Of a DNA stretch of 64,000 bases, positions 7,465 to 57,579 are shown piece after piece. The stretch comes from Escherichia coli. GTDB taxonomy: Bacteria; Pseudomonadota; Gammaproteobacteria; Enterobacterales; Enterobacteriaceae. The notes under the pieces are model-generated. The model saw only the letters and a program-made list of their open reading frames with translations. It was not told the DNA's origin and ran no database searches. Every line of letters starts with the position of its first letter. Position 1 is the first letter of the stretch. Made by a program: the position numbers and the translations under genes. The stretch lies in NCBI RefSeq assembly GCF_044324785.1, contig NZ_CP172127.1; one strand, 5' to 3'.

Positions 7465-7469
7465 ACACT

Positions 7470-7680
7470 GCCGGATGCGGCGCGAGCGCCTTATTCGGCC
7501 TACGGGTCGAATGTCCATGCGGGCTGTCACCCTCACCCCGGCCCTCTCCCTGAAAGGGCGAGGGAGAAAAACATAGCCTCGTTCAGCAACGGAGCTGAGC
7601 ACCGCTCCGGACAGTCCCCTCGCCCCTACGGGGAGAGGGTTAGGGTGAGGGGAACAAGCCGCACCATGTCTAAACAAGGC
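7470..7680. repeat. Intergenic palindromic repeat cluster (REP/BIME-like) between rhaA and rhaD
   Basis: Imperfect long inverted repeat gtcaccctcaccccggccctctccc (7527..7550) versus ggggagagggttagggtgaggg (7630..7651), plus internal hairpin ctccctgaaagggcgagggag. Confidence 0.7.
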
Positions 7681-7705
7681 AACCTAATTTACAGGAACAC
7701 AGAAC

Positions 7706-8894: not shown

Positions 8895-10289
8895 TCAGAA
8901 GAAGTATTTAAAGCGAACGCGTGCGCCGTAACGGTCATCAGTATCATCACCGTGTTTTTTATCACCGTCGCTATCCAGAATGGAGTAATACGTCCCGAGG
9001 TAAATATTAAAGTTCTCCATATCCATCACATTAGCGAACTGATAAGACGCATGAATGGTGTGAATGGTGTACGTCCCTTCATCATCAATCCAGCAGTCGT
9101 TATCACAAACTACACCGCTGAATTCATCAATCTTATTGTGCGCGTAGATATAACCCAGCTCGAAACGTTTCCACAGCGCGTTAATCCCGGCAGTGAAATC
9201 TTTCTCATTATTAGCATCTAAATAGGCGGTATTAAGATTAACCACGACACCATTTTCCGGATCCGTTTTTAGGCCATTCCAGGTCATGCTCATACCATAG
9301 CCGGTACGATCGGACTGATCGACAAAATTACCCTTGCTATCGGTATAACCATAAGCATTATTTACCACGTTCGCTTCCATCGCTGCGGAAACGGTAAATT
9401 CTTCCGTCGGCGACCAGGCAATTACCGGACGCAGATAAGCAACATTTTTCTGCTGCTCCATATCGCGTCCATGATAATTACCGTCATTATATAAAGATGT
9501 TCCGTCTTCAAGTAACGTGTTTAATTCAAAATACCAGTTATCGAGTTGTTTGCTGACGAGGAAATTACCGCCAGCGTTAGAGCGCCCGCGGCCCTCTTTC
9601 ATCATATAGATATAACCGCTGCCATCGTCATAAAGATCGTTCGCAGTATTACCGGAATGTTCAACAAAGGTATCCTGATTCAGCGGGAACATATCGTAGG
9701 CTTCAAAACGGCCTACTTTGACCTTCCAGTCGTTTTCTTTGCCAAAGAAGAATACCGCATCATCGATATTTACTGAACCGTGCATGTCCCCCAGCGGTTG
9801 TGCGGAGAACCCGGCGAAATAACCATTATCCAGTTTTCGCATACCATCAAAACCTAACAGAATACGACCATTGAGATTCCACTGTTCATTAGTGGGATCG
9901 CTATTCACATCAGCGTTGGTCATTGCCAGCAGGCCATGATTACTTTCTGCATCCATATTAAATTCTACGTCGCCGTAGATTTTTAAATCGCCATAACCTG
10001 AGAGCAAAAGATTAGGTGAGGTGGAATTTTTCTTTGCAGATTCCGCCGTTGCCTGTCCATTTACCGGCGTATTGCCCTGGGCAGCCTTAATTTCGCGGAT
10101 CTCAGCGGCTTGTTGTGTCTGCAGCTGTTTAACCTGGCTCTCTGCTTTTGCTGCCCGCATTTCTGCCGCTTCCAGGCGTTCTTCCAGCAATGCCATGCGT
10201 TGTTCCAGCGTTAAATGCTGTGTTTTTGCCATTCCGGTACTACATGCCAATAATAAACCGATGGCTAAAGATAATGTCGATTTTTTCAT
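8895..10289 (-). CDS. Outer-membrane carbohydrate-type porin with N-terminal coiled-coil extension (ScrY/LamB-like)
   Basis: 464-aa ORF; signal peptide MKKSTLSLAIGLLLACSTGMA; about 60 residues of heptad-like helix (LEQRMALLEERLEAAEMRAAKAESQVKQLQ); aromatic/Gly-rich beta-strand-like body; C-terminal RFKYFF typical of OMPs; AT-rich upstream region 10290..10640. Confidence 0.7.
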   Translation of the reverse strand: MKKSTLSLAIGLLLACSTGMAKTQHLTLEQRMALLEERLEAAEMRAAKAESQVKQLQTQQAAEIREIKAAQGNTPVNGQATAESAKKNSTSPNLLLSGYGDLKIYGDVEFNMDAESNHGLLAMTNADVNSDPTNEQWNLNGRILLGFDGMRKLDNGYFAGFSAQPLGDMHGSVNIDDAVFFFGKENDWKVKVGRFEAYDMFPLNQDTFVEHSGNTANDLYDDGSGYIYMMKEGRGRSNAGGNFLVSKQLDNWYFELNTLLEDGTSLYNDGNYHGRDMEQQKNVAYLRPVIAWSPTEEFTVSAAMEANVVNNAYGYTDSKGNFVDQSDRTGYGMSMTWNGLKTDPENGVVVNLNTAYLDANNEKDFTAGINALWKRFELGYIYAHNKIDEFSGVVCDNDCWIDDEGTYTIHTIHASYQFANVMDMENFNIYLGTYYSILDSDGDKKHGDDTDDRYGARVRFKYFF

Positions 10290-10765
10290 TATTTACGTTC
10301 CCTGAAATAAAGGAGACCCTACGCTTTCCAAAAGGAATACATATATAGGGAAATATAAGGTGTGCACTTTCGAATTTTTAATCCAACTTCAGCAGACCGA
10401 TGGATAGTATCCCGCCATATAATATGAGTAAATCCGCTGATTTCCTGGAACGTGAGGAATATAACAATAGTGCCGTTTTTAACTAAATATCGTAAAAAAT
10501 ATTAGATATGATTCACGCTGACTCATAAGCCACAAATATAAATAACCTTGCTGCAAAACATGTGCGGCAGTTAAACATTCACAACATCATTAAATAATGA
10601 TTTTTTATTCACTGCATTTATTTTGTCCATCAATATGTGCCTTACACCGCAAAATTTATCCTTCACTCTGCCTTATATTGTCACGACTTCACGACATATC
10701 CGCGCTCATCACAAAACCGCCCCGCCGTTACAATTAACTATAATATTTTTTCATGGAGTCCAATA

Positions 10766-11276
10766 ATGGCAGCACTTACTGCAAGCTGTATTGACCTGAA
10801 TATTCAGGGCAATGGCACTTATTCCGTTCTGAAGCAGTTGGCGACAATGGCGTTACAAAACGGTTTTATCACCGACTCACACCAGTTCCTGCAAACTCTG
10901 CTGCTGCGCGAAAAAATGCACTCCACCGGTTTTGGTTCCGGCATCGCCGTGCCGCACGGTAAAAGCGCCTGCGTTAAACAACCGTTCGTGTTATTCGCCC
11001 GCAAAGCGCAGGCCATTGACTGGCAGGCCAGCGATGGCGAAATTGCTGGAGCGAACAGGAACGACGTTTTCGTGGATTTTTTATTACCCTCGCCCAACCG
11101 GTTGAGGTGAATAACGAAGTCGTTAACCATGTGCTGATCGCCTGTGCCGCCGCCGATGCGCGTCATGAGCTAAAAATATTTAGCTATCTGGCAAGCGTAT
11201 TGTGTCAGCATCCGGCAGAGGTTATTGCCGGGTTAACAGAATATGAGGCATTTATGGAGTTACTTCACAGGGGGTG
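10766..11276 (+). pseudogene. frvA: PTS EIIA (fructose-like) component FrvA, apparently frame-disrupted
   Basis: N-terminal EIIA-2 region MAALTASCIDLNIQGNG...GSGIAVPHGKSAC...WQASDGE runs to a stop at 11110; the expected C-terminal EIIA segment VNNEVVNHVLIACAAADARHELKIFSYLASVL... is in a different frame (stop 11276). No frvB/frvX/frvR follow. Confidence 0.6.
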
Positions 11277-11280
11277 AACG

Positions 11281-11305
11281 GTGTCGGATGCGCCGCATCC
11301 GACAC
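11281..11305. other. Perfect 25-bp hairpin (REP-like) at frvA / yiiG junction
   Basis: gtgtcggatgcgccgcatccgacac is a perfect inverted repeat; no flanking T-run on the plus strand. Confidence 0.5.
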
Positions 11306-11332
11306 TGCATTTATCACCACAATCAAAAACGT

Positions 11333-12388
11333 TTAACGCAAGCTATTATAGTCATCGACCATTTCGTTGTACTCGCGTAACGCTCGCGGAAATGAGTCGT
11401 CGACCATCCAGCTTGTGTTTGCATCCTGAAGATGCTCTTTATCCCAGTCAGAGTACGGAACTTTATCTCTGACGCGGCGAACATATTTTTTAGCCTCGAG
11501 TTGATACTGGTCTGCCGAATTAATGAACGAGAAATTCATACCGCCTTTATCCGCTTCTTTGGCCTGCGCCACCAGCGTTTCCAGTTCAGAGACTTTCTTC
11601 ATTGCCGCATCAACATCAAACTTCTCTTGCGAAATCAGGTTATTAATTTGTTTCGCTGAAATCATGACTGCCAGAGAGTAGTAGTGGAATGTTTTCCCTT
11701 CTCTTTGTTCAATATTTTTCAGTTCCGCAAGCTGGCGCTTATCGTTAATTTCCTGAATCGCCGCATGATAAGATTCTGCTACAGGTTCAAAGGCTTCAAG
11801 ATTTTTTAAGAATGTCTGGTGCAGCGTTTTCCCTTTCGCAAACGCATCGTCTTTATAATTTTCCTGGGTGTAATATTTATCCATTTCGTTAATGGTATTA
11901 CCCAACGCCACGGCAGCATCAATATAACTCACCGCCACGCCATCAATAGGTTGCAGCGCAGGCGTTAACGCCACGACTCTTTTTATTCCTTTTTGACACT
12001 CAGAGAGATTGGATTCACTAATGCCATAGATGCCATAAACAAGGCTCTCTTTACCCGTTGGCCCCTGTTTAAAATCTTTCAGCCAGTCAGCGTAACGCGC
12101 CAGACTGTTCTGTACAGGGATCTGTAACTTGTTGTAGCACTTGATATAGACATCCATTTTTTCGTCGAAGACCGCTTGTTCATCGACCACCGGTTGCGCA
12201 GGCGTTTCAGGTTTAACTTCTGCTTTTGCAACGGGAGCTTCAGTAGGTTTCGCTTCAGGAGCTGGTGCGGCAGGTTGACTATTGGCAGGCGGGGGCGTTT
12301 CTGTTTCGGCTTTTTTATCATCACAACCCGTGAGACCGAGGGCCATGATGGCGACTATAATAGCGGAAGATAATAAATTCCTTTTCAT
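11333..12388 (-). CDS. yiiG: Lipoprotein YiiG (DUF3829 family)
   Basis: 351-aa ORF with lipoprotein signal MKRNLLSSAIIVAIMALGLTGC and Pro/Ala/Glu-rich linker. Confidence 0.85.
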   Translation of the reverse strand: MKRNLLSSAIIVAIMALGLTGCDDKKAETETPPPANSQPAAPAPEAKPTEAPVAKAEVKPETPAQPVVDEQAVFDEKMDVYIKCYNKLQIPVQNSLARYADWLKDFKQGPTGKESLVYGIYGISESNLSECQKGIKRVVALTPALQPIDGVAVSYIDAAVALGNTINEMDKYYTQENYKDDAFAKGKTLHQTFLKNLEAFEPVAESYHAAIQEINDKRQLAELKNIEQREGKTFHYYSLAVMISAKQINNLISQEKFDVDAAMKKVSELETLVAQAKEADKGGMNFSFINSADQYQLEAKKYVRRVRDKVPYSDWDKEHLQDANTSWMVDDSFPRALREYNEMVDDYNSLR

Positions 12389-12582: not shown

Positions 12583-14889
12583 CTACATTCCATAACGTTC
12601 AGAAATAGCAGCATGCTTCTCTTCATTCGCCCCGGCTTCTTTGGCAAGACGCCACCAGCACAACGGATGTTCCCAGTCAGCGGTCAATTCGTGCAAGGTC
12701 TTATCGATATCACCTTTAGAAACTGAACGCGGCGCGCTGATAACAAAGTAGAACGCGGGCAGCGGCTGTGCATCTTCTCCCTGCTGGCTGTCCGTTAACG
12801 TATAGTCCTCGTTACTGTTGCTCCAGTAGTACCAGTTTCGTTCACGGAGCGCCTCACGGAAGACATTAAACTGTTCTTCCCCAGGCATGACACCTTCACA
12901 GAACCAGGACTCGCCGTACTCAGTCGGGATAATGGTTTGCAGGCAGGCATAAAGTGGCGTGAAATTCTTCCGTTCTTCCTCATCCTCTGGTTGGGTGTTC
13001 AACATTTCTGCATCGAATACCACAACTTCATCAACATGTTGCGGATAATCGGTCCGGTAAGTTGGCTCAATGATCCTTGCTGTTACCGGCCCAATACGTT
13101 GAGCATAGTAATAGCGGTATTCATAATTTTCCCGGAAGCGAATGTTTAGCAGCCCCCATTTTTCGTCGATAAAACCTTCACCTTCCGTAAGTTCGATTTC
13201 CAGTTCAGCAGCAATAGCACGAACCAAATCCCATTGTTGCAGGATGCTGGCGGTCGCCATGATATCCCACTGGAGATTTCGAATATCTTCTTCACGGCTA
13301 ATCATCAGTTGCTGCAATTGTTGTAAATAATCCAGCTGTCGATCCCAGGCTTCCTGTTTTTGTGCTGCCCAGGAGCACATGCGATAAACGCCAACCCATT
13401 CACGCCCTTTTTCGTTTTGCAGCAACTGTTGCCCAATCGACTCCAGTTCACTCCAGTCTTCCTGTTGGTTGATCACTCGCGCACGGAACCACAAGGCCAT
13501 ATGTAGCAGCCCCGCCTGTTCATACTGCTTCGCCAGGTGCTCAATGGTTTGCAGATCGTCACGGTGGAGCAATAAATCCAACAGATCGAAGCAGAGATTG
13601 TTATCTTCCTGGAGGTGGCTTTCGACGTAGCGTTGCAGAAGTTCAATCGACTCATCAATCGCATTACAGGCATTTAACGCATTGACCAGTTTGCCCAGCA
13701 ATTCCGCATCATCTGGCGCGTTCAGGTAAGCGCGGCGGAATGTTTCGACGTCTTTTTCTGGATCTGGCTGCGTTTCTTCGTCGCTATTTTCAGGTACTTC
13801 TACAACCGGACGAGCAAGCAACTCCGCCTCTTTGGCGGCGATTTTTTCACTCAGTTCGAGAAACTCGCGATCAACCCCCAGTAACGCGCGTAATTTTGGC
13901 ATGTGTCGCTGGGCCAGTTTCATCGCTATTTTGGCAACCCAGACGGATTCACGCTCCAGCGCCAGGGTGATTTGCAGTTTTGCCAGATTAACCACTTTGC
14001 GATGCGCCCCGGCCTGTGAACGTTGCTCCAGCATTTTCTGGATGATGCGCGCCAGTTGCCAGTTGTTTCTTTGTGGATGACGGGGAAGTAACACAGTAAT
14101 GATTTTCAGCCATGACCCCCATGAATGGGGAGTCAGATCTGACCAACGCGGTAATTCCTCCCAGACTTCTTCGTCCTGCCCGCATAACGCCATGATGTAC
14201 AGTTTTTTGAGGTGATTACTAATGCGGTCGCGGCCCCAGTAATCATTGGCTTCTGTCAGCTCATCAATCAGTATGCGTGCTTCATCATAACGCTGAAGTT
14301 CAATCAGAATATCGGCACGAGTATAAAGTAATGCATCAATATCATCTTCCCCGGCTGCTTTAACTGCGTCGATTTGTCGATCCAGATAAGCCAGTGCCTC
14401 CTCTATTCTTTTGGAATCTATCAGTGCACTGGCATATTCAGTGGACAAACACTGAAAACAGCTCCAGGTCGGATCAATCCGCGCGATGGTTTCTTCACAT
14501 ACCGCCATGCGTTCATTCGCCCAGCCAGGTGCATCAATATTTTCGTAGCAGGCGGATAAATCCTGGGTAACGCAGATAGATTGTGGGCAATCTTTTGTCT
14601 CTTCCCGGTGCGCTTTTTCAAACAGCGCCACCACGTCTGGCAGTACTTTTTCGCCTTCTTCGCGGTTAGTGAGACGATGGCGCATTTCCCAATGACCAAT
14701 AAAAATCTCCAGCCACGGATTTTTTGCCACCTGGGTAAGTGCTTTTACTTCAGGTAACAGCGAATCGCACTTTTCCATTTGCAGGTGCATAACGCCTTCC
14801 GAATAATCATCGATAAGTTGCGGAATATACTCCTGCCCGGCATCGCGTAACTCCTTAGTATATTTGTGATACCACTCCCATATATCCAT
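12583..14889 (-). CDS. Large acidic helical-repeat protein of unknown function, operon partner of the GHKL ATPase
   Basis: 768-aa ORF, start 1 bp downstream of the preceding gene's stop (translational coupling); Trp/Glu/Leu-rich, predicted alpha-helical (TPR/HEAT-like by eye); no catalytic motif recognised. Confidence 0.6.
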   Translation of the reverse strand: MDIWEWYHKYTKELRDAGQEYIPQLIDDYSEGVMHLQMEKCDSLLPEVKALTQVAKNPWLEIFIGHWEMRHRLTNREEGEKVLPDVVALFEKAHREETKDCPQSICVTQDLSACYENIDAPGWANERMAVCEETIARIDPTWSCFQCLSTEYASALIDSKRIEEALAYLDRQIDAVKAAGEDDIDALLYTRADILIELQRYDEARILIDELTEANDYWGRDRISNHLKKLYIMALCGQDEEVWEELPRWSDLTPHSWGSWLKIITVLLPRHPQRNNWQLARIIQKMLEQRSQAGAHRKVVNLAKLQITLALERESVWVAKIAMKLAQRHMPKLRALLGVDREFLELSEKIAAKEAELLARPVVEVPENSDEETQPDPEKDVETFRRAYLNAPDDAELLGKLVNALNACNAIDESIELLQRYVESHLQEDNNLCFDLLDLLLHRDDLQTIEHLAKQYEQAGLLHMALWFRARVINQQEDWSELESIGQQLLQNEKGREWVGVYRMCSWAAQKQEAWDRQLDYLQQLQQLMISREEDIRNLQWDIMATASILQQWDLVRAIAAELEIELTEGEGFIDEKWGLLNIRFRENYEYRYYYAQRIGPVTARIIEPTYRTDYPQHVDEVVVFDAEMLNTQPEDEEERKNFTPLYACLQTIIPTEYGESWFCEGVMPGEEQFNVFREALRERNWYYWSNSNEDYTLTDSQQGEDAQPLPAFYFVISAPRSVSKGDIDKTLHELTADWEHPLCWWRLAKEAGANEEKHAAISERYGM

Positions 14890-14890
14890 T

Positions 14891-16726
14891 TTATTTTCCT
14901 TGATTAATTAAGACAGGAATAACCTGAGTAAAATCTTCCAGTGCCTGATGTAAATCCCACTGCTGTTCTTTATTACCGCTGGAGCACAGAATCACTTTCA
15001 GCGATTTTAATAACCGTAATGCTGCCGCTGGCTGTTGATGGTGTTGTAATGCCGTCACCAGTTGCATGACACAGGGGTTATTAAGGTTGATATAGAGACT
15101 TGAAGTTTTAGATTTTTGGATTTGCGAGGTAAATTGCCGCGCCAGCATTAATGCAGCGGTACTGATGCGTTTATCTGCGTCATCCTGTTCGAGAATTTGT
15201 TTTAATTCTGCTTCGCGGTCTGGCGTGACCACGAGCGGTAAAACCGCTGGTTCGAAGCGGGAGATAATTAATTGCTCGCCATCACAGAGATGCTCTTCCA
15301 GATATGCAACCTGCTCTTCGGGTAATTCTGCCAGGCTGAACAACTGCTCATTACCCGTTTGCGTACCGACTTCGATAATCCGGCAGTGATATAACAGCGC
15401 CCAACGACGTAAAAATGGCACCACCGCATAACGATCGCCACGGGCTACGGGCCGTTGCAGAATATGAAACAACATCTCTTCAAAACCGCCGTCGCGGCTT
15501 AACAGAATATGAATACTGTTATTAACGCGTAAATCCTTCGCCAGCAGCGCACCTTTTGACGTTGGCACCTGCAGGCGGTCTTTGAGTAAATCAAACAGAC
15601 GATCATCACACAAGGCCGCACCCAGCAACGCTTCGTTGTGGCGCATTAATACACGCCGCCAGATTTCTGGCTGGTTTTGTGCGAGATCGGACAAACCTGA
15701 AATCAGCGCCTCTTTTAGCGCCTCCTGTACCGCAACCCAGGTTTCATCCCGCTGGAGATCTTCCCGGCTCGCCGTCGGCGTCAGTTTCGATGACTCAATC
15801 ACGCCGCCAATAAATCCGGCCCAGGGCGGTAACAACTCACGCGCTTCATCATCCAGTAACATACCGCGCAAAAACAACGACAGGTTGCGGTTATCGCTGG
15901 TGCCGTAGGTTGCGCCATCCTGAATCCATAAAATCCCGACCGCATCGCTCATCCCCGCAGGTACTACCGGAATGGTGCAAATCGGTTCGAAGGAGGATTC
16001 AAACTGGGCGGCAAAGGCGAGATTTTTACGCTGCACCAGCGCGCGGTGCATGGTTACGCCTTCGGGGGCAACTTCACGCCACGGTGGTTGAAGTTTATTT
16101 ACCGGCTCGCCGGCATCGCCGACATAGACCGGTTCGTGCAGCAATATGCAGTAGCGGGAAAGAACGCGGTTCAGCAAATTGTTACTCGCCAGATGGCTAT
16201 ACTCTTCTTTGAGCGTCAGAATCACCTGCGTTCCCGTTTCCGAGGACTCATACGGCGTAACGGTATATTTTTGCCCGTCAGTAGAGTGGTATTTCCAGCG
16301 CTGATCCGGCGTTTGCCAGGATGTGGTCAACACCGTAACCTCTTTTGCCAGCACAAAGGCCGACAAAAAACCGAGGCCGAACATACCAATTAAACCGGTG
16401 TTGTCATCCTGCTGGCGCAACATTCGGGTATAACCCACGCCCACTGTCGCCAGGAAGCCGTGAATTTCACTTTCTGTCAGTCCCGCACCGGTATCGGTAA
16501 TGGTGATGATGGACTTCGCCACGTCTGCCACCACACGAATCGCGTTATCCTTTGGCGCATCGGGCTGCTCAATCCTGCGGCGAACGATCGCATCATGGCC
16601 GTTCTGCACCAGCTCGCGCACGGCAACCACGGGAGTGGAGTAAAGATGCTTACTAAGCACCTCAATTAAACCGTTTAAATTAACTTCTGTAGAATATGAA
16701 CTGCCAGGTAACTGTAATGTACTCAT
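14891..16726 (-). CDS. Hsp90/MORC-type GHKL ATPase paralog (HtpG-like, not housekeeping htpG)
   Basis: 611-aa ORF with Bergerat-fold motifs in order: ELVQNGHDA (motif I, cf. Hsp90 ELISNASDA), DTGAGLT (motif II, cf. DNGIGMT), GMFGLGFLSAF (G-loop, cf. GQFGVGFYSAF); AT-rich promoter region 16727..17037. Confidence 0.7.
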   Translation of the reverse strand: MSTLQLPGSSYSTEVNLNGLIEVLSKHLYSTPVVAVRELVQNGHDAIVRRRIEQPDAPKDNAIRVVADVAKSIITITDTGAGLTESEIHGFLATVGVGYTRMLRQQDDNTGLIGMFGLGFLSAFVLAKEVTVLTTSWQTPDQRWKYHSTDGQKYTVTPYESSETGTQVILTLKEEYSHLASNNLLNRVLSRYCILLHEPVYVGDAGEPVNKLQPPWREVAPEGVTMHRALVQRKNLAFAAQFESSFEPICTIPVVPAGMSDAVGILWIQDGATYGTSDNRNLSLFLRGMLLDDEARELLPPWAGFIGGVIESSKLTPTASREDLQRDETWVAVQEALKEALISGLSDLAQNQPEIWRRVLMRHNEALLGAALCDDRLFDLLKDRLQVPTSKGALLAKDLRVNNSIHILLSRDGGFEEMLFHILQRPVARGDRYAVVPFLRRWALLYHCRIIEVGTQTGNEQLFSLAELPEEQVAYLEEHLCDGEQLIISRFEPAVLPLVVTPDREAELKQILEQDDADKRISTAALMLARQFTSQIQKSKTSSLYINLNNPCVMQLVTALQHHQQPAAALRLLKSLKVILCSSGNKEQQWDLHQALEDFTQVIPVLINQGK

Positions 16727-17002
16727 TTTTCAATACTCATAATCCATCACCCACTATTGAAAATACATTGCTGTTTTTACAACCGGTGCAAGGTTTGTTA
16801 TTTTCATTCACGCATCGGAAACATTTATTTATTGACGCGATGATTAAAACAAAATGTCTTATATAAATAATGATTAATTCTTAATAGGATTAATGCGACT
16901 GGAGTATATCGATATAAACCGGAGTTAACGAGATAATTTCTTGTGGTGAAATTATTATTTAAATGCTGAATAATATATTGAGGATTATTTAATAGAAAAA
17001 TA

Positions 17003-17036
17003 AAACCGCAATCCAGAATCAGAATTGCGGTATTTC
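17003..17036 (-). terminator. Hairpin terminator downstream of fdhD
   Basis: accgcaatccagaatcagaattgcggt hairpin directly after the fdhD stop, followed by a T-run on the minus strand. Confidence 0.55.
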
Positions 17037-17037
17037 T

Positions 17038-17874
17038 TTAATTATGAATCAAACGCTGCGGATGGGTATAAACCGTTGCCCGACCCAGTTTACAAAAGCC
17101 CACCAGCGTCAAATTACAGCGTTCAGCCACTTCTACAGCAAGCGTGGTCGCGGCAGACACCGCAAACAAAATCTCTACGCCACACATCGCCGACTTTTGC
17201 ACCATTTCATAACTGGCACGGCTGGAAACCAGCACCGCACCTTGCTGCCAGCTTTCCCCTTCTTGTGACCGGCGGCCTAACAGTTTGTCCAGCGCCACAT
17301 GGCGACCCACGTCTTCATGCCCGCCGACCAGTTCGCCAGATGGCAACATCCATGCAGCGGCGTGAGTACAACCGGTCAGTTGCCCCACTGGCTGGAAATC
17401 ATTGAGATGACGTAATGCATCATCCAGTTTGTTGAGATCAAACGTCTGGGTGAACGGCAGCGGCTGCACCGGTTTTCCGATATCGTTAAGCTGTTCCACG
17501 CCGCACACGCCGCAGCCTGTACGCCCGGCCAGCGCCCGGCGACGTTCCTTCAACCCCATAAAGCGGCGGCTGGAAAGCTCAATTTGAACTTCAAGACCAT
17601 TACAGGAAGGAGCGACATCCATGCCGAAGATATCGCGCGGACTTTCTATTATCCCCTCGGAAAGCGAAAAACCGAGCGCAAAGTACTCAAGGTCTTTGGG
17701 CGACGCCATCATCACCACATGCGAAATGCCGTTGTAGACCAGCGCAACGGGAACTTCTTCCGCGACCTCATCTAACCGTGGGTGTTGTAAATCATCACGC
17801 CGCCATAACTCAATTTGACGAACACCTGTGATATTTGTCACATTTTCGATTTCTTTTTGCTGTGTTTTTTTCAC
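17038..17874 (-). CDS. fdhD: Formate dehydrogenase accessory sulfurtransferase
   Basis: 278-aa [62 protein letters not shown]...; divergent from fdoG. Confidence 0.92.
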
Positions 17875-18067
17875 TTTCTCTTAACCAGATAAGAACACAC
17901 ACACCAACATTATGGTATTCTGTTACAAACCCTTCCTGGATGGAGGGAAATTGAGCCAATTCTGGACCTTTGCGGCCCCTTCCGCAAAGAAAAATAACTC
18001 CCACTCCCTGCACACGCAGCAAGCGAATGTAAATGGGACGTGACAATGTCGAAACAAGGAGCAATCC

Positions 18068-21000
18068 ATGCAGGTCAGCAGAAGGCAGTTCTTTAAGATC
18101 TGCGCTGGCGGTATGGCAGGCACCACGGCAGCGGCACTGGGTTTTGCACCCAGCGTAGCACTCGCGGAAACTCGGCAGTATAAACTGCTGCGCACCCGCG
18201 AAACCCGTAATACCTGCACCTATTGTTCCGTAGGCTGTGGGCTGTTGATGTACAGCCTCGGTGACGGAGCAAAAAACGCCAAAGCATCTATCTTCCATAT
18301 CGAAGGCGATCCGGATCACCCGGTCAACCGCGGTGCACTTTGTCCGAAAGGCGCTGGCCTGGTGGATTTCATCCACTCCGAAAGCCGTCTGAAGTTTCCG
18401 GAATACCGTGCGCCAGGTTCTGATAAATGGCAGCAAATCAGTTGGGAAGAGGCGTTTGATCGCATCGCCAAACTGATGAAAGAAGACCGCGATGCTAACT
18501 ACATTGCGCAAAACGCCGAAGGCGTGACTGTTAACCGCTGGCTCTCCACCGGGATGCTGTGTGCTTCCGCGTCGAGTAACGAAACCGGCTATTTAACGCA
18601 AAAATTCTCCCGCGCGCTGGGTATGCTCGCGGTCGACAACCAGGCGCGTGTCTGACACGGACCAACGGTAGCAAGTCTTGCTCCAACATTTGGTCGCGGT
18701 GCGATGACCAACCACTGGGTCGACATCAAGAACGCCAACCTCGTCGTGGTGATGGGCGGTAACGCCGCTGAAGCTCACCCGGTCGGGTTCCGCTGGGCGA
18801 TGGAAGCCAAAATTCACAATGGCGCGAAGCTGATTGTGATCGATCCTCGCTTTACGCGTACGGCTGCGGTGGCTGACTACTATGCCCCTATTCGTTCCGG
18901 TACTGACATTGCTTTCCTGTCAGGCGTATTGCTGTACCTGCTGAACAATGAAAAATTCAACCGCGAATATACCGAAGCCTATACCAACGCCAGCCTTATC
19001 GTGCGTGAGGATTACGGCTTTGAAGATGGCCTGTTCACCGGCTACGACGCGGAAAAACGCAAGTACGATAAATCCTCCTGGACTTACGAACTGGACGAAA
19101 ACGGCTTCGCCAAACGCGATACCACGCTGCAACATCCGCGCTGCGTGTGGAACTTGCTGAAACAGCACGTTTCCCGCTACACGCCAGATGTGGTTGAAAA
19201 CATCTGTGGTACGCCAAAAGACGCGTTCCTGAAAGTCTGCGAATACATCGCCGAAACCAGTGCTCACGATAAAACTGCTTCGTTCCTGTATGCCCTCGGC
19301 TGGACGCAACACTCTGTTGGTGCGCAAAACATTCGTACGATGGCGATGATCCAGTTGCTGCTCGGCAATATGGGGATGGCAGGCGGCGGCGTTAACGCCC
19401 TGCGTGGTCACTCCAATATTCAGGGGCTGACGGACCTGGGGCTACTGTCGCAGAGCCTGCCGGGTTACATGACGCTGCCGAGCGAGAAGCAGACCGATCT
19501 GCAAACCTACCTTACCGCCAACACGCCAAAACCGCTGCTGGAAGGCCAGGTAAACTACTGGGGCAACTACCCGAAATTCTTCGTCTCCATGATGAAGGCC
19601 TTCTTTGGTGATAAAGCGACGGCGGAAAATAGCTGGGGCTTTGACTGGTTGCCGAAGTGGGATAAAGGCTACGACGTCCTGCAATACTTCGAGATGATGA
19701 AAGAAGGCAAGGTCAATGGCTATATCTGCCAGGGCTTTAACCCTGTTGCCTCATTCCCGAACAAAAACAAAGTGATCGGTTGTCTGTCGAAACTGAAGTT
19801 CCTCGTCACCATCGACCCGCTGAACACTGAAACCTCTAACTTCTGGCAGAACCACGGTGAGCTGAACGAAGTTGACTCGTCGAAGATCCAGACCGAAGTG
19901 TTCCGTCTGCCATCGACCTGCTTCGCGGAAGAGAACGGTTCTATCGTTAACTCCGGTCGCTGGTTGCAGTGGCACTGGAAAGGTGCGGACGCCCCGGGGA
20001 TTGCGCTGACAGATGGCGAGATCCTCTCCGGTATCTTCCTGCGCTTGCGCAAGATGTATGCCGAACAGGGTGGCGCAAACCCGGATCAGGTGCTGAACAT
20101 GACCTGGAACTACGCCATTCCGCATGAGCCGAAGTCGGAAGAAGTAGCGATGGAGAGCAACGGTAAGGCGCTGGCCGATATTACCGATCCGGCAACCGGT
20201 GCGGTTATCGTCAAGAAAGGCCAACAACTTAGCTCGTTCGCCCAACTGCGCGATGACGGTACGACCTCCTGTGGCTGCTGGATTTTCGCCGGTAGCTGGA
20301 CGCCAGAAGGTAACCAGATGGCGCGCCGTGATAACGCCGATCCGTCTGGCCTCGGTAACACGCTGGGCTGGGCATGGGCATGGCCGCTTAACCGCCGCAT
20401 TCTGTATAACCGCGCCTCCGCAGATCCGCAGGGTAACCCGTGGGATCCGAAGCGTCAGTTGCTGAAATGGGACGGCACCAAATGGACCGGCTGGGATATT
20501 CCGGACTACAGCGCAGCGCCTCCGGGCAGTGGCGTTGGGCCGTTTATCATGCAGCAGGAAGGCATGGGGCGTCTGTTTGCCCTCGATAAGATGGCGGAAG
20601 GTCCGTTCCCGGAACACTACGAGCCGTTTGAAACGCCGCTGGGAACTAACCCGCTGCATCCAAACGTTATCTCGAACCCGGCTGCACGTATCTTTAAAGA
20701 CGACGCCGAAGCGTTGGGTAAAGCCGATAAGTTCCCGTATGTCGGAACCACCTATCGTCTGACCGAGCACTTCCACTACTGGACCAAACACGCGCTGTTG
20801 AACGCGATTTTGCAACCAGAGCAGTTTGTGGAAATCGGGGAGTCGCTGGCGAATAAACTTGGCATTGCCCAGGGCGATACCGTGAAAGTCTCCTCCAACC
20901 GTGGCTATATCAAAGCCAAAGCGGTGGTGACCAAACGTATTCGCACGCTGAAAGCGAACGGCAAAGATATCGATACCATCGGTATTCCGATTCACTGGGG

Positions 21001-21127
21001 CTATGAAGGTGTTGCGAAAAAAGGCTTTATTGCCAATACGTTAACGCCATTCGTTGGTGATGCGAACACGCAGACGCCAGAGTTTAAATCCTTCCTCGTG
21101 AATGTGGAAAAGGTGGATACCCAATAG
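18068..21127 (+). CDS. fdoG: Formate dehydrogenase-O major subunit; selenoprotein with in-frame UGA at 18653..18655
   Basis: Two same-frame ORFs (18068..18655 and 18704..21127) separated only by TGA; Tat signal MQVSRRQFFKICAGGMAGTTAAALGFAPSVALA; conserved ...AVDNQARV-U-HGPTVASLAPTFGRGAMTNHW context. Confidence 0.93.
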
Positions 21128-21253
21128 ATTTCAGATTGCAGGGAGCTGGCGACGCCATGAAGACCGGGAGCATAGAAACACTATGTGACCGGGATGAATA
21201 AGGAAGCCAGCGAACCTGCAAGCTGAAAGATGAAGGGTAAACGGAGACGAAAT

Positions 21254-22156
21254 ATGGCTTACCAATCTCAAGATATCATTCGTCGTTCCGCGACTAACGG
21301 TCTGACCCCCGCGCCTCAGGCGCGGGACTTCCAGGAAGAAGTGGCGAAACTCATCGACGTCACCACCTGTATCGGCTGTAAAGCCTGTCAGGTGGCGTGT
21401 TCAGAGTGGAACGACATTCGCGATACCGTCGGCAATAACATTGGGGTGTACGACAACCCCAATGATTTAAGTGCCAAATCGTGGACGGTGATGCGATTCT
21501 CGGAAGTGGAGCAGAACGACAAACTGGAATGGCTGATCCGCAAAGACGGCTGTATGCACTGTTCCGATCCAGGCTGCCTGAAAGCGTGCCCGGCGGAAGG
21601 GGCAATTATTCAGTATGCCAACGGTATCGTCGACTTCCAGTCCGAGCAGTGCATTGGCTGCGGTTATTGCATTGCGGGCTGTCCGTTCGACATTCCGCGC
21701 CTCAACCCGGAAGACAACCGCGTCTACAAATGTACGCTGTGCGTTGACCGCGTGGTGGTTGGGCAAGAACCGGCCTGCGTGAAGACCTGCCCAACGGGCG
21801 CGATTCACTTCGGTACGAAAGAGTCGATGAAAACGCTGGCGAGCGAGCGCGTGGCGGAGCTGAAAACCCGCGGTTACGACAATGCGGGTTTGTACGACCC
21901 GGCAGGCGTTGGTGGTACACACGTTATGTACGTGCTGCACCATGCTGACAAGCCAAATCTGTATCATGGCTTGCCGGAGAACCCGGAAATCAGCGAAACC
22001 GTGAAATTCTGGAAAGGCATCTGGAAACCGCTCGCAGCTGTTGGCTTTGCGGCTACCTTCGCGGCCAGTATCTTCCACTACGTGGGTGTCGGTCCGAACC
22101 GTGCGGATGAGGAAGAGAATAATCTGCACGAAGAGAAAGACGAGGAGCGCAAATGA
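21254..22156 (+). CDS. fdoH: Formate dehydrogenase-O iron-sulfur subunit
   Basis: ORF 21230..22156; start set at [22 protein letters not shown] (300 aa); multiple CxxCxxC ferredoxin motifs. Confidence 0.92.
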
Positions 22157-22788
22157 AACGACGTGACACCATCGTGCGCTACACCGCGCCGGAACGTATC
22201 AACCACTGGATCACCGCCTTCTGCTTCATCCTGGCGGCGGTGAGCGGGCTTGGCTTTTTGTTCCCGTCCTTCAACTGGTTGATGCAAATCATGGGCACAC
22301 CGCAGCTGGCGCGAATTCTGCACCCGTTTGTCGGCGTGGTTATGTTTGCCTCGTTCATCATCATGTTTTTCCGTTACTGGCATCACAACCTAATCAATCG
22401 GGATGATATCTTTTGGGCGAAGAATATTCGTAAGATCGTCGTCAACGAGGAAGTAGGTGACACCGGGCGTTATAACTTCGGTCAGAAATGCGTTTTCTGG
22501 GCGGCGATTATTTTCCTGGTTCTGCTGCTGGTGAGCGGCGTGATTATCTGGCGTCCTTATTTTGCGCCTGCTTTCTCAATCCCGGTGATCCGATTCGCGT
22601 TAATGCTGCATTCATTTGCCGCAGTGGCGTTAATTGTGGTTATCATGGTGCATATCTACGCCGCCCTTTGGGTGAAAGGCACGATTACCGCCATGGTGGA
22701 AGGATGGGTTACCAGCGCCTGGGCGAAGAAACATCACCCGCGCTGGTACCGTGAGGTCCGCAAGACAACGGAAAAGAAAGCTGAATGA
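22153..22788 (+). CDS. fdoI: Formate dehydrogenase-O cytochrome b556 subunit
   Basis: 211-aa membrane protein [38 protein letters not shown]...; overlaps fdoH stop. Confidence 0.92.
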
Positions 22789-23714
22789 GTATTCGCATAA
22801 TCCCGCAAGATGAGCTGGGTTCGAGCGAGAAACGTACGGCGGATATGATTCCGCCGTTATTGTTCCCTCGGCTCAAGAATTTATACAACCGCCGCGCCGA
22901 GCGTCTGCGCGAGCTGGCAGAAAATAATCCGTTGGGTGATTATCTGCGCTTTGCTGCGCTTATCGCCCACGCCCAGGAAGTGGTGCTGTACGACCATCCG
23001 CTGGAAATGGATTTGACCGCACGCATTAAAGAAGCCAGCGCACAAGGCAAGCCCCCGCTGGATATTCACGTTCTGCCGCGTGATAAGCACTGGCAAAAGC
23101 TGCTGATGGCGCTAATTGCTGAGCTGAAACCTGAAATGAGCGGCCCGGCGCTGGCAGTGATTGAGAATCTGGAGAAGGCATCGACTCAGGAGCTGGAAGA
23201 TATGGCCAGCGCACTGTTTGCCTCTGATTTCTCGTCCGTCAGCAGCGATAAAGCGCCGTTTATCTGGGCTGCGCTGTCGCTCTACTGGGCGCAGATGGCT
23301 AATCTGATCCCCGGCAAAGCCCGCGCTGAATACGGCGAACAACGTCAATATTGCCCGGTATGTGGCTCTATGCCGGTGTCCAGCATGGTGCAAATTGGCA
23401 CCACTCAGGGGCTGCGTTACCTGCACTGCAACCTGTGTGAAACCGAATGGCACGTGGTGCGCGTAAAATGCAGCAACTGTGAACAGAGCGGCAAACTGCA
23501 TTACTGGTCGCTGGATGACGAACAGGCCGCGATTAAAGCCGAAAGCTGCGATGACTGCGGCACTTACCTGAAGATTCTTTATCAGGAAAAAGATCCAAAA
23601 ATCGAAGCCGTAGCAGATGACCTCGCCTCTCTGGTACTGGATGCGCGAATGGAGCAAGAAGGCTACGCCCGTAGTTCCATCAACCCGTTCCTGTTTCCGG
23701 GTGAAGGGGAGTAA
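22785..23714 (+). CDS. fdhE: Formate dehydrogenase formation protein FdhE
   Basis: 309-aa ORF with CxxC clusters ([28 protein letters not shown]); overlaps fdoI stop. Confidence 0.92.
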
Positions 23715-23895
23715 TCTCTGACGTTTTCCGGGTGGCGCAGGTCGCCCGGATTACAGTTCATAGGGTGTGACGACACCATCTCTCTTATTCCGCGTTACCA
23801 CCTCAAGCTATGCTGCCAGTGCCTGTTTTGCCTCAATTTTCACACTGAACAAATCGATAACAATATCGATATCAAATAGCCAAATCTTTTTGCCA

Positions 23896-24114
23896 TTACC
23901 ATTCCTCGCGCAGCTTACGCTGGTATTCGACACCATCTTCCTCACTCCCTTGCCAGATGCCAAAAGCACTGGCTCTTGCTGTTTGCGATTGATTTACCAG
24001 GTATTGATCTACCGCTTCCCGTAATAGCTCCGCACGAGGAAGATTACGCTGCACCTCGAGATCATCAAGTTGCTTAAACAACTCATTCGATAAATCGAGT
24101 AAAATTCTGCCCAT
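23896..24114 (-). CDS. yiiF: Small ribbon-helix-helix (CopG/MetJ-like) protein YiiF
   Basis: ORF 23896..24138; start set at [39 protein letters not shown] (72 aa). Confidence 0.8.
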
Positions 24115-49074: not shown

Positions 49075-49225
49075 AACTTTGCCTCAGGCATTAGAAATAG
49101 CGCGTTATTGTACACGGATTAATCGCACTACAAAACAGGATCACAAACATCCTCCGCAAACAAGTATTGCAGAGTCCCTTTGTGATCGCTTTCACGGAGC
49201 ATAAAAAGGGTTATCCAAAGGTCAT

Positions 49226-49363
49226 TGCACCAATATGGTGCTTAATGTTTCCATTGAAGCACTATATTGGTGCAACATTCACATCATGGTGCAGCCCTTT
49301 TGCACGATGTTAAGCATGATAACGCCTTTTAGGGGCAATTTAAAAGTTGGCACAGTTTTCGCT
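49226..49363 (+). promoter_or_regulatory. glnA control region: NtrC-binding palindromes and sigma-54 promoter
   Basis: NtrC-type sites tgcaccaatatggtgct (49226..49242) and gcactatattggtgcaa (49259..49275); sigma-54 -24/-12 element TGGCACagttTTCGCT at 49348..49363. Confidence 0.8.
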
Positions 49364-55984: not shown

Positions 55985-56049
55985 AATGGTTCGTCTTTTA
56001 GCCGTTTTATTCAGTATAGATTTGCGGCGGAATCTAACAGAAAGCAAGC

Positions 56050-56296
56050 AAAGAAAAAAGGCGACAGATTACTCTGTCGCCTTTTTTCCTGACTCATAAC
56101 CCTTAACGGGTCTTACAATCCTTGCAGGCCGCCAACACACCCTGTTTTTCCATTAGCCGGAACAATCCGTGTTGATTCCATTTCCGTTTAATTACGTCTC
56201 CGGACGTTTGTCTTCCTGACAATCCTCTGTCTTCGCCTCCTGGCGCTCCTGACCCTCATCCTGAGTCATTGTTCCTGTTAGCGTCCTCGCTCTATG
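56050..56296 (-). ncRNA. csrC: CsrC small RNA (CsrA-sequestering)
   Basis: Minus-strand sequence starts ATAGAGCGAGGACGCTAACAGGAACAATGACTCAGGATGAGGGTCAGGAGCGCCAGGAGGCG... with many GGA motifs and ends in terminator ggcgacagagtaatctgtcgcc + T-run; lies in the yihI-engB intergenic region; ends approximate. Confidence 0.85.
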
Positions 56297-57323: not shown

Positions 57324-57432
57324 TAAAAAACGCCCCAGTCATTACTGACTGGGGCGGCTAAAATATTCAGCCAAATCCGATTACGTGAAGTAAAAGGTCT
57401 GAAAGATAGAACATCTTACCTCTGTACCCTAC
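57324..57432 (-). ncRNA. spf: Spot 42 small RNA
   Basis: Minus strand reads GTAGGGTACAGAGGTAAGATGTTCTATCTTTCAGACCTTTTACTTCACGTAATCGGATTTGGCTGAATATTTTAGCCGCCCCAGTCAGTAATGACTGGGGCGTTTTTTA (109 nt), including its intrinsic terminator. Confidence 0.95.
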
Positions 57433-57579
57433 GCGACTAACTTTACTCTTTTTTGTTCAGTTCAGAAAGCACTTTTTGTAATTTTTTTTCAGTTGTTGCA
57501 TAGGAATTTCTAATAGCCATCACAAAACGTGACAGCTTATGTTGCTTACTTACGAAAAAAGGGCATGTTCAGGTGAATC

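Follow-up and report, generated by a model that had tools for sequence, protein, structure and literature searches.

We conclude with very little doubt that the region 18068-21127 of the 64,000 nt stretch of Escherichia coli DNA analysed here (the window) is one gene, fdoG, and that the UGA at its codon 196 is recoded as selenocysteine (Sec) by means of a SECIS element directly downstream. The source is an Escherichia/Shigella-type genome carrying the respiratory formate dehydrogenase FDH-O. The assignment of Sec196 and its SECIS is correct, and it is also ordinary and already known, belonging to textbook E. coli biology and to a curated Rfam family; the locus is a clean example of dual coding, with protein and RNA signal within 60 nt, that confirms existing knowledge rather than extending it. 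Its practical consequence is for annotation, in that the two ORFs listed for this gene should be merged into one selenoprotein gene with a transl_except for Sec at 18653-18655. Without merging, the catalytic subunit of FDH-O would pass for a pseudogene or for two fragments. Coordinates of the features discussed are collected in Table 1.

Translation from the ATG at 18068 to the TAG at 21127 gives a single frame of 1019 codons plus the terminal stop, and the only internal stop within it is the TGA at 18653-18655. The residues around codon 196 read LGMLAVDNQARV before the stop and HGPTVASLAPTFGRGAM after it, or in shorter form LAVDNQARV-U-HGPTVASLAPTFGRGAM, and a further 823 codons are open downstream. 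The ORF list breaks this frame into 18068..18655 and 18704..21127, which lie in one frame (18704-18068 = 636 = 3 x 212); position 18704 is merely the first ATG past the TGA, and the codons of 18656-18703 are open. This split is not a matter of chance, because the C-terminal 'ORF' holds most of the 1016-aa enzyme and the conceptual protein closely resembles FdoG of K-12. The initial annotation had described two long same-frame ORFs parted by this TGA only, in a conserved formate dehydrogenase context, and had argued that a six-frame track thereby divides one selenoprotein gene. All of this holds: the TGA is also codon 196 in both fdoG and fdnG of K-12, and RefSeq has a single CDS across the TGA in each of the four E. 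coli records inspected.

Table 1. Features of the fdo region, with positions numbered from the first nucleotide of the window
Feature	Coordinates	Strand	Basis
fdhD, accessory sulfurtransferase, divergent	17038..17874	-	TIGR00129, 336.4 bits; syntenic E. coli annotation agrees
fdoG, catalytic (alpha) subunit of formate dehydrogenase-O	18068..21127	+	TIGR01553, 1KQF match, K-12 identity, RefSeq CDS
SECIS element, UGA included	18650..18708	+	Rfam SECIS_3 (RF01989), full model 1-59
UGA codon 196, very probably recoded as Sec	18653..18655	+	Sole internal stop; alignment with X196 of 1KQF chain A and X of 1H0H
Whole hairpin with lower stem	18656..18698	+	Lower stem 18656/18658-18665 with 18690-18698
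Frozen synonymous-site zone, codons +1 to +20 after UGA	18656..18715	+	Codon identity, 106 sequences
Apical stem-loop, expected SelB-binding part	18667..18684	+	MFE and centroid folds, RNAalifold consensus
fdoH, FDH-O beta (Fe-S) subunit	21254..22156	+	TIGR01582, 478.7 bits; ATG 21254 is the E. coli start
fdoI, FDH-O cytochrome b556 (gamma) subunit	22153..22788	+	NF007924, 453.3 bits (cut-off 341)
fdhE, formate dehydrogenase accessory protein	22785..23714	+	NF002925, 604.5 bits

The product of the gene matches the NCBIfam equivalog HMM TIGR01553 over residues 2-1015 with 1573.9 bits (cut-off 814.2), and FdnG in PDB entry 1KQF over residues 1-1015 with E=0; for both the HMM and the PDB searches, Sec (U) was replaced by C in the query. 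At the TGA, 1KQF chain A has the non-standard residue X196, and the Desulfovibrio gigas formate dehydrogenase (1H0H_A) likewise has X in the aligned position; the Desulfovibrio PDB entries matching FdoG bear the name 'selenocysteine-containing'. Two further features were read directly from the translation, namely an N-terminal twin-arginine signal, SRRQFFK, at residues 4-10, and an N-terminal cysteine cluster for a 4Fe-4S centre, C50-x2-C53-x3-C57 followed by C92.

The neighbourhood places the gene in the fdo operon encoding FDH-O rather than in the fdn operon encoding FDH-N. Divergent fdhD is followed by fdoG-fdoH-fdoI-fdhE, an order syntenic with K-12 b3891-b3895, and the NCBIfam models for FdhD, FdoH, FdoI and FdhE all score above their cut-offs. 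An FdnI-type gamma subunit was considered for fdoI and ruled out, NF007558 giving 243.6 bits against a cut-off of 339. The earlier choice of fdoG over fdnG is thus borne out by the fdhD, fdoHI and fdhE neighbours and by the FdoI-type gamma subunit. The fdo locus is held by 5424 of the 5426 complete E. coli genomes. As for the wider surroundings, searches of three neighbouring unexplained ORFs with PADLOC, Pfam and NCBIfam returned TPR and HSP90-family ATPase assignments only, with no assignment from any of these sources for the 637-aa ORF.

At the fdoG-fdoH junction lies an imperfect, ERIC-like palindrome some 123 nt long (21116-21238). The insertion falls precisely on the stop codon of fdoG and replaces it, so that the last three codons (DTQ) and the TAG are repeat-derived. 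It widens the junction from the 12 nt seen in K-12 to 126 nt, and its predicted RNA hairpin has an energy of -59.6 kcal/mol. The fdoH start at 21230 in the ORF list is an in-frame ATG within the inserted repeat. None of the 5426 complete E. coli genomes has the palindrome at the fdoG stop, the rest of the window holds no further copies, and the fetched loci yielded one weak partial match only (60 nt at 77% identity, locus L034). The palindrome is lineage-specific and is the sole feature nearby that is not textbook; it might, in the lineage concerned, affect FDH-O through mRNA stability or the ratio in which fdoG and fdoH are translated, though we consider this unlikely.

The sequence around the UGA belongs to the Rfam family SECIS_3 (RF01989), which it matches with 84.3 bits against a gathering threshold of 63 (E 1.6e-19) and which was recovered again by a gathering scan of the whole window. 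Membership of the fdhF-type family SECIS_2 is excluded by a score of 28.1 bits, the gathering threshold there being 70. The element lies inside the coding region, directly 3' of the in-frame UGA, with the hairpin beginning at 18656-18658. Its apical stem (18667-18674/18678-18684) comprises 7 bp, G18667-C18684, G18668-C18683, A18670-U18682, G18671-C18681, C18672-G18680, A18673-U18679 and A18674-U18678, with U18669 bulged and a loop of G18675, U18676 and C18677. The distance from the UGA to the start of the stem is 12 nt, and that from A18655 of the UGA to G18675 in the loop is 20 nt. This geometry agrees with what is generally described for bacterial SECIS elements, whose stem has 6-8 bp and whose conserved loop G sits some 20 nt away from the UGA (PMC4605307). 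For the lower stem the pairing register is uncertain, since the single-sequence MFE fold, in which 18658-18665 pair with 18690-18698 and G18696 is bulged, differs from the Rfam and alifold consensus, and two Rfam consensus pairs of the lower helix are unpaired in the fdoG sequence.

The initial annotation had placed a SECIS immediately downstream of the TGA and proposed RNA folding as a check. Its location stands, but the quoted length of some 32-40 nt (of which 18656-18687 reads cacggaccaacggtagcaagtcttgctccaac) is too short: the hairpin ends near 18698, the Rfam match reaches 18708, and synonymous sites stay frozen as far as about 18715. Folding did recover the hairpin, with an MFE of -13.8 kcal/mol, but the energy alone is not decisive (z -1.44), as 21 of 200 shuffled sequences fold at least equally well. 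Because folding energy does not discriminate, we relied on the covariance model, on synonymous sites and on covariation.

For the latter two we used 118 VDNQARV-TGA sites from the genomes of other species, collected with a search pattern that excluded the SECIS itself; the 59-nt SECIS is identical in 92 of them. In the 20 codons that follow the UGA (+1 to +20) the probability of codon identity is 0.81-1.0, compared with roughly 0.3-0.6 for most degenerate flanking codons (n=106). These low-identity flanking codons encode amino acids as conserved as those of the frozen zone, and where a flanking amino acid is 100% conserved, two to four codons are used freely for it. The freeze spans many genera and orders. 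In the 22 distinct sequences compared, the apical helix remains 98.1% paired, and at two of its pairs, 18670:18682 (AU/GC/UA) and 18673:18679 (AU/CG), both partners have changed. The covariation score of the apical helix, 0.169, exceeds both that of shuffles (0.079, with none of 500 as high) and that of slid controls (at most 0.082); this signal rests on about eight divergent sequences and few independent events, because most of the 118 sites are identical. The lower helix is weaker, with 75% of cells paired. The stretch 3' of the UGA is therefore under selection at the RNA level. Beyond the 3' limit of the hairpin the synonymous freeze continues for some 17-20 nt, as far as about 18715-18720; a minor possibility is that a further constraint acts here or that fdoG and fdnG have undergone gene conversion.

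Conservation past the TGA might instead stem from the need to preserve the protein sequence of the active-site loop, or from conversion between the two paralogues, with no functional RNA involved. The peptide HGPTVASLAPTFGRGAM is indeed invariant or nearly so, the 59 nt are identical in both paralogues of one genome as conversion would yield, and the folding z-score is weak. Protein constraint, however, cannot freeze third positions, and it is codons +1 to +20 that do not vary while the flanking codons do; the freeze reaches well beyond one genome, across many genera and orders; and where the sequence does vary, both partners of an apical pair change and pairing is kept, in a region that attains the threshold of a covariance model that scores structure. 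We consider an explanation without functional RNA very improbable.

That the TGA is a genuine stop, arising by nonsense mutation or sequencing error and leaving a pseudogene made up of a 195-aa fragment and a dead frame, has scarcely any probability left. The six-frame ORF list does break the gene there, albeit mechanically, and there is gene decay elsewhere, with yiiG, csqR and yihU frameshifted in the closest genome, that of strain N3, and frvBXR absent from the window. Against this stand the same TGA at the same codon in both K-12 paralogues, the long open frame beyond it in a protein that equals that of K-12 but for one substitution and the extension, the curated SECIS match directly after the codon, and the coincidence of the position with the Sec residue of solved homologues. 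Were the UGA instead read by a near-cognate tRNA (Trp or Cys), or recoded in some way other than by SelB and Sec-tRNA(Sec), low-level UGA read-through, which E. coli translation shows in general, would be the precedent; nothing specific to this locus speaks for it, and the canonical SECIS at the canonical distance, the deposition of homologous enzymes as selenocysteine-containing and the practically universal presence of selAB in E. coli speak against it, so that this too appears extremely improbable.

Recoding as Sec thus remains the preferred reading, and by homology to characterised E. coli elements it would proceed as follows. The UGA would not be read as a terminator; the mRNA directly past it is predicted to form the bacterial SECIS hairpin, and SelB would bind the apical stem-loop of this hairpin; and given this SECIS, Sec would be inserted at position 196. 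Codon 196 Sec of FdoG is the molybdenum-ligand position of the enzyme, and Sec196 would thus serve as a ligand of molybdenum in the Mo-bis-PGD cofactor. Neither selABCD nor tRNA-Sec was found in the 64-kb window, which has no tRNA genes, and no sel genes appear in the syntenic gene maps. As selAB are present in 5425 of the 5426 complete E. coli genomes, selA, selB, selC and selD are expected from established knowledge to lie elsewhere in the source genome.

The closest characterised counterpart is K-12 fdoG (b3894), with which the gene shares its order of neighbours, the TGA at codon 196 and an identical 90 nt around it. The two are 98.0% identical at the nucleotide level, and their products differ by one substitution (K689 in the window, S in K-12) and in length, K-12 fdoG being three codons shorter whereas the window gene ends …VEKV-DTQ. 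K-12 fdnG, encoding the alpha subunit of FDH-N, is a paralogue in another operon (fdnGHI), with 76.8% amino acid and 74.7% nucleotide identity overall; its Sec codon has the same number, both genes fall in SECIS_3, and the longest run identical to the window fdoG is 71 nt (18650-18720), right across the UGA. More distant is fdhF (FDH-H), whose product is a cytoplasmic 715-aa enzyme and whose TGA is at codon 140, within the same ARV-U-HGP context. In the proposed comparison with the fdnG and fdhF elements, the sequence is that of fdnG over these 71 nt and the geometry is that of fdhF. The fdhF SECIS, the experimentally dissected prototype, likewise has a stem from 12 nt past the UGA, a bulged U and a loop G at 20 nt, but it carries a GGUC loop on a UGCA/UGCA stem where fdoG has GUC on AGCAA/UUGCU, and the two are placed in separate Rfam families, SECIS_2 for the fdhF type and SECIS_3 for fdoG.

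The catalytic (alpha) subunit gene of formate dehydrogenase-O, fdoG (18068-21127), has just one internal stop when translated in a single frame, codon 196 (LGMLAVDNQARV*HGPTVASLAPTFGRGAM), and 18620-18710 reads directly as ...gcgcgtgtc TGA cacggaccaacggtagcaagtcttgctccaacatttggtcgcggtgcgatgacc.... A mechanical list of + strand ORFs divides the gene into 18068..18655 (195 aa) and 18704..21127 (807 aa) in a shared frame. Since 18704 is merely the earliest ATG past the TGA, and the 16 intervening codons are open, the observation is exactly as described in the initial annotation, with two long ORFs split by the TGA alone. The translation begins with a twin-arginine motif, SRRQFFK, and in all four records inspected (N3, K-12 fdoG, K-12 fdnG and SMS-3-5) a single CDS is annotated across the TGA.

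Across its whole length the window is colinear with sodA-rha-frv-fdo-yih-glnALG-polA-dsbA of E. coli; the nearest complete genome is that of strain N3 (99.0-99.6%), with most E. coli at 97.7-98%, and the source is therefore an Escherichia/Shigella-type genome outside that set of complete genomes. Of 5426 complete E. coli genomes, 5424 match 17000-24000 by Megablast (95-99% identity). Divergent fdhD precedes the alpha subunit gene, which is followed by fdoH, fdoI and fdhE. The alpha gene shares 98.0% nucleotide identity with K-12 fdoG; its protein differs by one substitution, at residue 689, and is 3 residues longer at the C-terminus. FdoG, with U replaced by C for the search, scores 1573.9 bits against NCBIfam TIGR01553 (cut-off 814), and the neighbouring products score above cut-off with the models for FdoH, FdhE and FdhD. 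For the gamma subunit, the FdoI-specific model gives 453 bits (cut-off 341) and the FdnI model 243.6 bits, short of its cut-off of 339, which identifies the operon as fdo, not fdn. The codon position is homologous to the selenocysteine (Sec) of solved enzymes: the top solved homologue of FdoG is E. coli FdnG, 1KQF (E=0, residues 1-1015), and the TGA aligns with non-standard residue X196 of the 1KQF chain and with the equivalent X of Desulfovibrio gigas formate dehydrogenase, 1H0H, the Desulfovibrio structure entries being named 'selenocysteine-containing'.

Selenophosphate is supplied by SelD, and Sec-tRNA(Sec) is formed from Ser-tRNA(Sec) by SelA. SelB binds this tRNA and also, with its C-terminal winged-helix domains, the SECIS hairpin that immediately follows the UGA on the 3' side; competing with RF2, it brings Sec to the A site (PMC8124441, PMC4605307). 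We infer that the fdoG UGA at 18653-18655 is served in this way, such that SelB bound to the downstream hairpin would deliver Sec at codon 196. The 64-kb window contains no tRNA genes, and the syntenic gene maps covering it show no sel genes; of 5426 complete E. coli genomes, 5425 carry selAB, which provides a prior for the source genome.

The full SECIS_3 model (RF01989) matches 18650-18708 with 84.3 bits (gathering 63, E 1.6e-19; Rfam). The SECIS element is directly 3' of the TGA, where the initial annotation had placed it, but it is longer than the 32-40 nt quoted. The fdhF-type SECIS_2 family gives only 28.1 bits (gathering 70). Folding predicts the anticipated hairpin, but its energy (-13.8 kcal/mol) is not decisive, with a z of -1.44 and 21 of 200 shuffles equally good.

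Because the fold energy is unconvincing alone, orthologues were sampled without regard to the hairpin, using the pattern GTNGAYAAYCARGCNCGNGTNTGA (VDNQARV followed by TGA) and one genome per species. At least 120 stretches were found, and the matches listed include many genera of Enterobacterales, Chromobacterium, Aquitalea, Hydrogenophilales, Anaeromyxobacteraceae and Coriobacteriia. Among these listed matches, 92 of the 118 usable sites have an identical 59 nt, and there are 22 distinct versions. In pairs drawn from the 106 listed sequences that align without gaps, the same-codon probability stays at 0.81-1.0 throughout codons +1 to +20, compared with roughly 0.3-0.6 at the majority of degenerate flanking codons whose amino acids are fully conserved; synonymous sites are thus frozen for about 60 nt directly past the UGA. 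Again among the matches listed, the Rfam structure imposed on the 22 distinct sequences pairs 85% of cells, compared with 24-50% when the 3' partners are slid, and the covariation score is 0.169 versus 0.079 in shuffles (none of 500 reaching it). In these sequences the apical helix reaches 98.1% pairing; pair 18670:18682 is A-U, G-C or U-A, pair 18673:18679 is either A-U or C-G, and RNAalifold recovers the helix again. The lower helix is weaker (75% paired among the matches listed), two of its Rfam consensus pairs are mismatches in the window and its register varies by method; only the apical helix is firmly established.

The fdnG comparison that had been proposed is also favourable: K-12 fdnG is 74.7% identical to the window fdoG overall, yet the longest identical run, 18650-18720, extends for 71 nt from 3 nt upstream of the UGA. 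Both this run and the frozen synonymous sites overshoot the predicted 3' end of the hairpin by approximately 17-22 nt, to codon +20 and position 18720.

Were the TGA a real stop and fdoG a pseudogene, the 823 codons past it would not be expected to remain intact and nearly unchanged; this reading is contradicted by them, by K-12 fdoG and fdnG, which have their TGA at the same codon, and by the SECIS. The nucleotide conservation past the TGA might be attributed to protein constraint or gene conversion only, but neither can explain third positions frozen across orders together with compensatory changes; the RNA element itself is under selection. Read-through of the UGA by a non-Sec route finds no support. 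The locus is already known: it is Sec196 of E. coli fdoG together with the SECIS described for it, which belongs to a curated Rfam family. The reading in the initial annotation is supported, with two refinements, the greater length of the element and the indecisive simple folding.

Precisely at the fdoG stop is an inserted imperfect palindrome of about 123 nt, predicted to form an RNA hairpin of -59.6 kcal/mol (z -11). FdoG ends in ...VEKVDTQ versus ...VEKV, with a new TAG stop at 21125-21127; the distance from the fdoG stop to the fdoH start is 126 nt with the insertion and 12 nt without it, and an in-frame ATG is created at 21230, upstream of the true fdoH start at 21254. None of 5424 matches covers at least 80% of the query, and the insertion is missing at this site from every one of the 5426 complete E. 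coli genomes; some strains have an element of 72% identity in the spacer between uhpC and uhpT. The Rfam V_AS5 match is weak and full-length (27.9 bits). The central TATGTGACCGGGATGA agrees at 13 of 16 positions with the ERIC2 primer core. Size, palindromic form and this central sequence point to a putative ERIC/IRU element; in PMC6066780 such an element is called a '127-bp imperfect palindrome'.

Other features of the window are listed in the table. The well-aligned part of the match to RF02778, a 5'-UTR RNA thermometer family (Rfam), comprises the Shine-Dalgarno sequence, start codon and initial fdoG codons. The two-gene island, carried by SMS-3-5 and missing in K-12 and N3, specifies a TPR-repeat protein of 768 aa and an HSP90-family (GHKL) ATPase of 611 aa, the latter scoring below cut-off against NCBIfam PRK14083 (284.7 bits) and weakly against PADLOC TmtA (E 9.6e-06). 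At least 80% of 1-25000 is covered in only 959 of 5426 genomes; 25001-50000 includes sequence that occurs many times over in E. coli genomes and plasmids, at a median of 19 places per genome. The 637-aa ORF has no match in Pfam, NCBIfam or PADLOC, and N3 is annotated there with a 'transposase' and a partial hypothetical protein. Relative to SMS-3-5, frvB, frvX and frvR, most of the frv operon, are missing (~10300-11330), and about 1 kb, with a 157-aa ORF, separates yiiG (11333-12388) from the carbohydrate porin gene (8895-10289). The rhaA-rhaD spacer contains REP/BIME-type palindromes, gccggatgcggcg..., and a second GC-rich inverted repeat, caccctcaccccggccctctccc ... gggagagggttagggtgagggg.

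Coordinates of features in and around the fdoG SECIS and elsewhere in the window
Feature	Coordinates	Strand	Basis or details
Apical stem-loop	18667-18684		MFE and centroid folds
Apical stem, 5' to 3'			G-C, G-C, bulged U18669, A-U, G-C, C-G, A-U, A-U
Apical loop	18675-18677		G18675 U18676 C18677
Lower stem	18658-18665 with 18690-18698		MFE and centroid folds
Extended freeze/identical run	18699-18720	+	Codon identity; fdoG/fdnG comparison
Palindrome at fdoG stop	21116-21238	+	
FdoG1_thermometer (RF02778)-like match	17899-18097	+	32 bits, gathering 50 (sub-threshold), E 4.5e-05
Two-gene island, yiiG/fdhD interval	12583-16726	-	Pfam, NCBIfam, PADLOC
637-aa ORF, yiiE/fabY interval	25270-27183	-	
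rhaA-rhaD spacer	7465-7700	+	~160 nt longer than in SMS-3-5
CsrC sRNA	56042-56295	-	Rfam 277.9 bits, above gathering
Spot 42 sRNA	57324-57442	-	Rfam 122.8 bits, above gathering
ES222 sRNA	49156-49263	-	Rfam 133 bits, above gathering

The geometry of the fdoG apical hairpin fits the general rule for bacterial SECIS hairpins, in which the stem has 6-8 bp and a conserved G in the loop lies about 20 nt from the UGA (PMC4605307). From the fdoG UGA it is 12 nt to the start of the apical stem and 20 nt to the loop G, and both distances are equal in K-12 fdhF, in keeping with the suggested comparison. In fdhF, the minimum for SelB binding reportedly consists, from the work of Böck, Engelberg-Kulka and colleagues, of the apical 17 nt, 11 nt past the UGA, with the loop G/U and a bulged U; the fdoG element of the window has the same layout.
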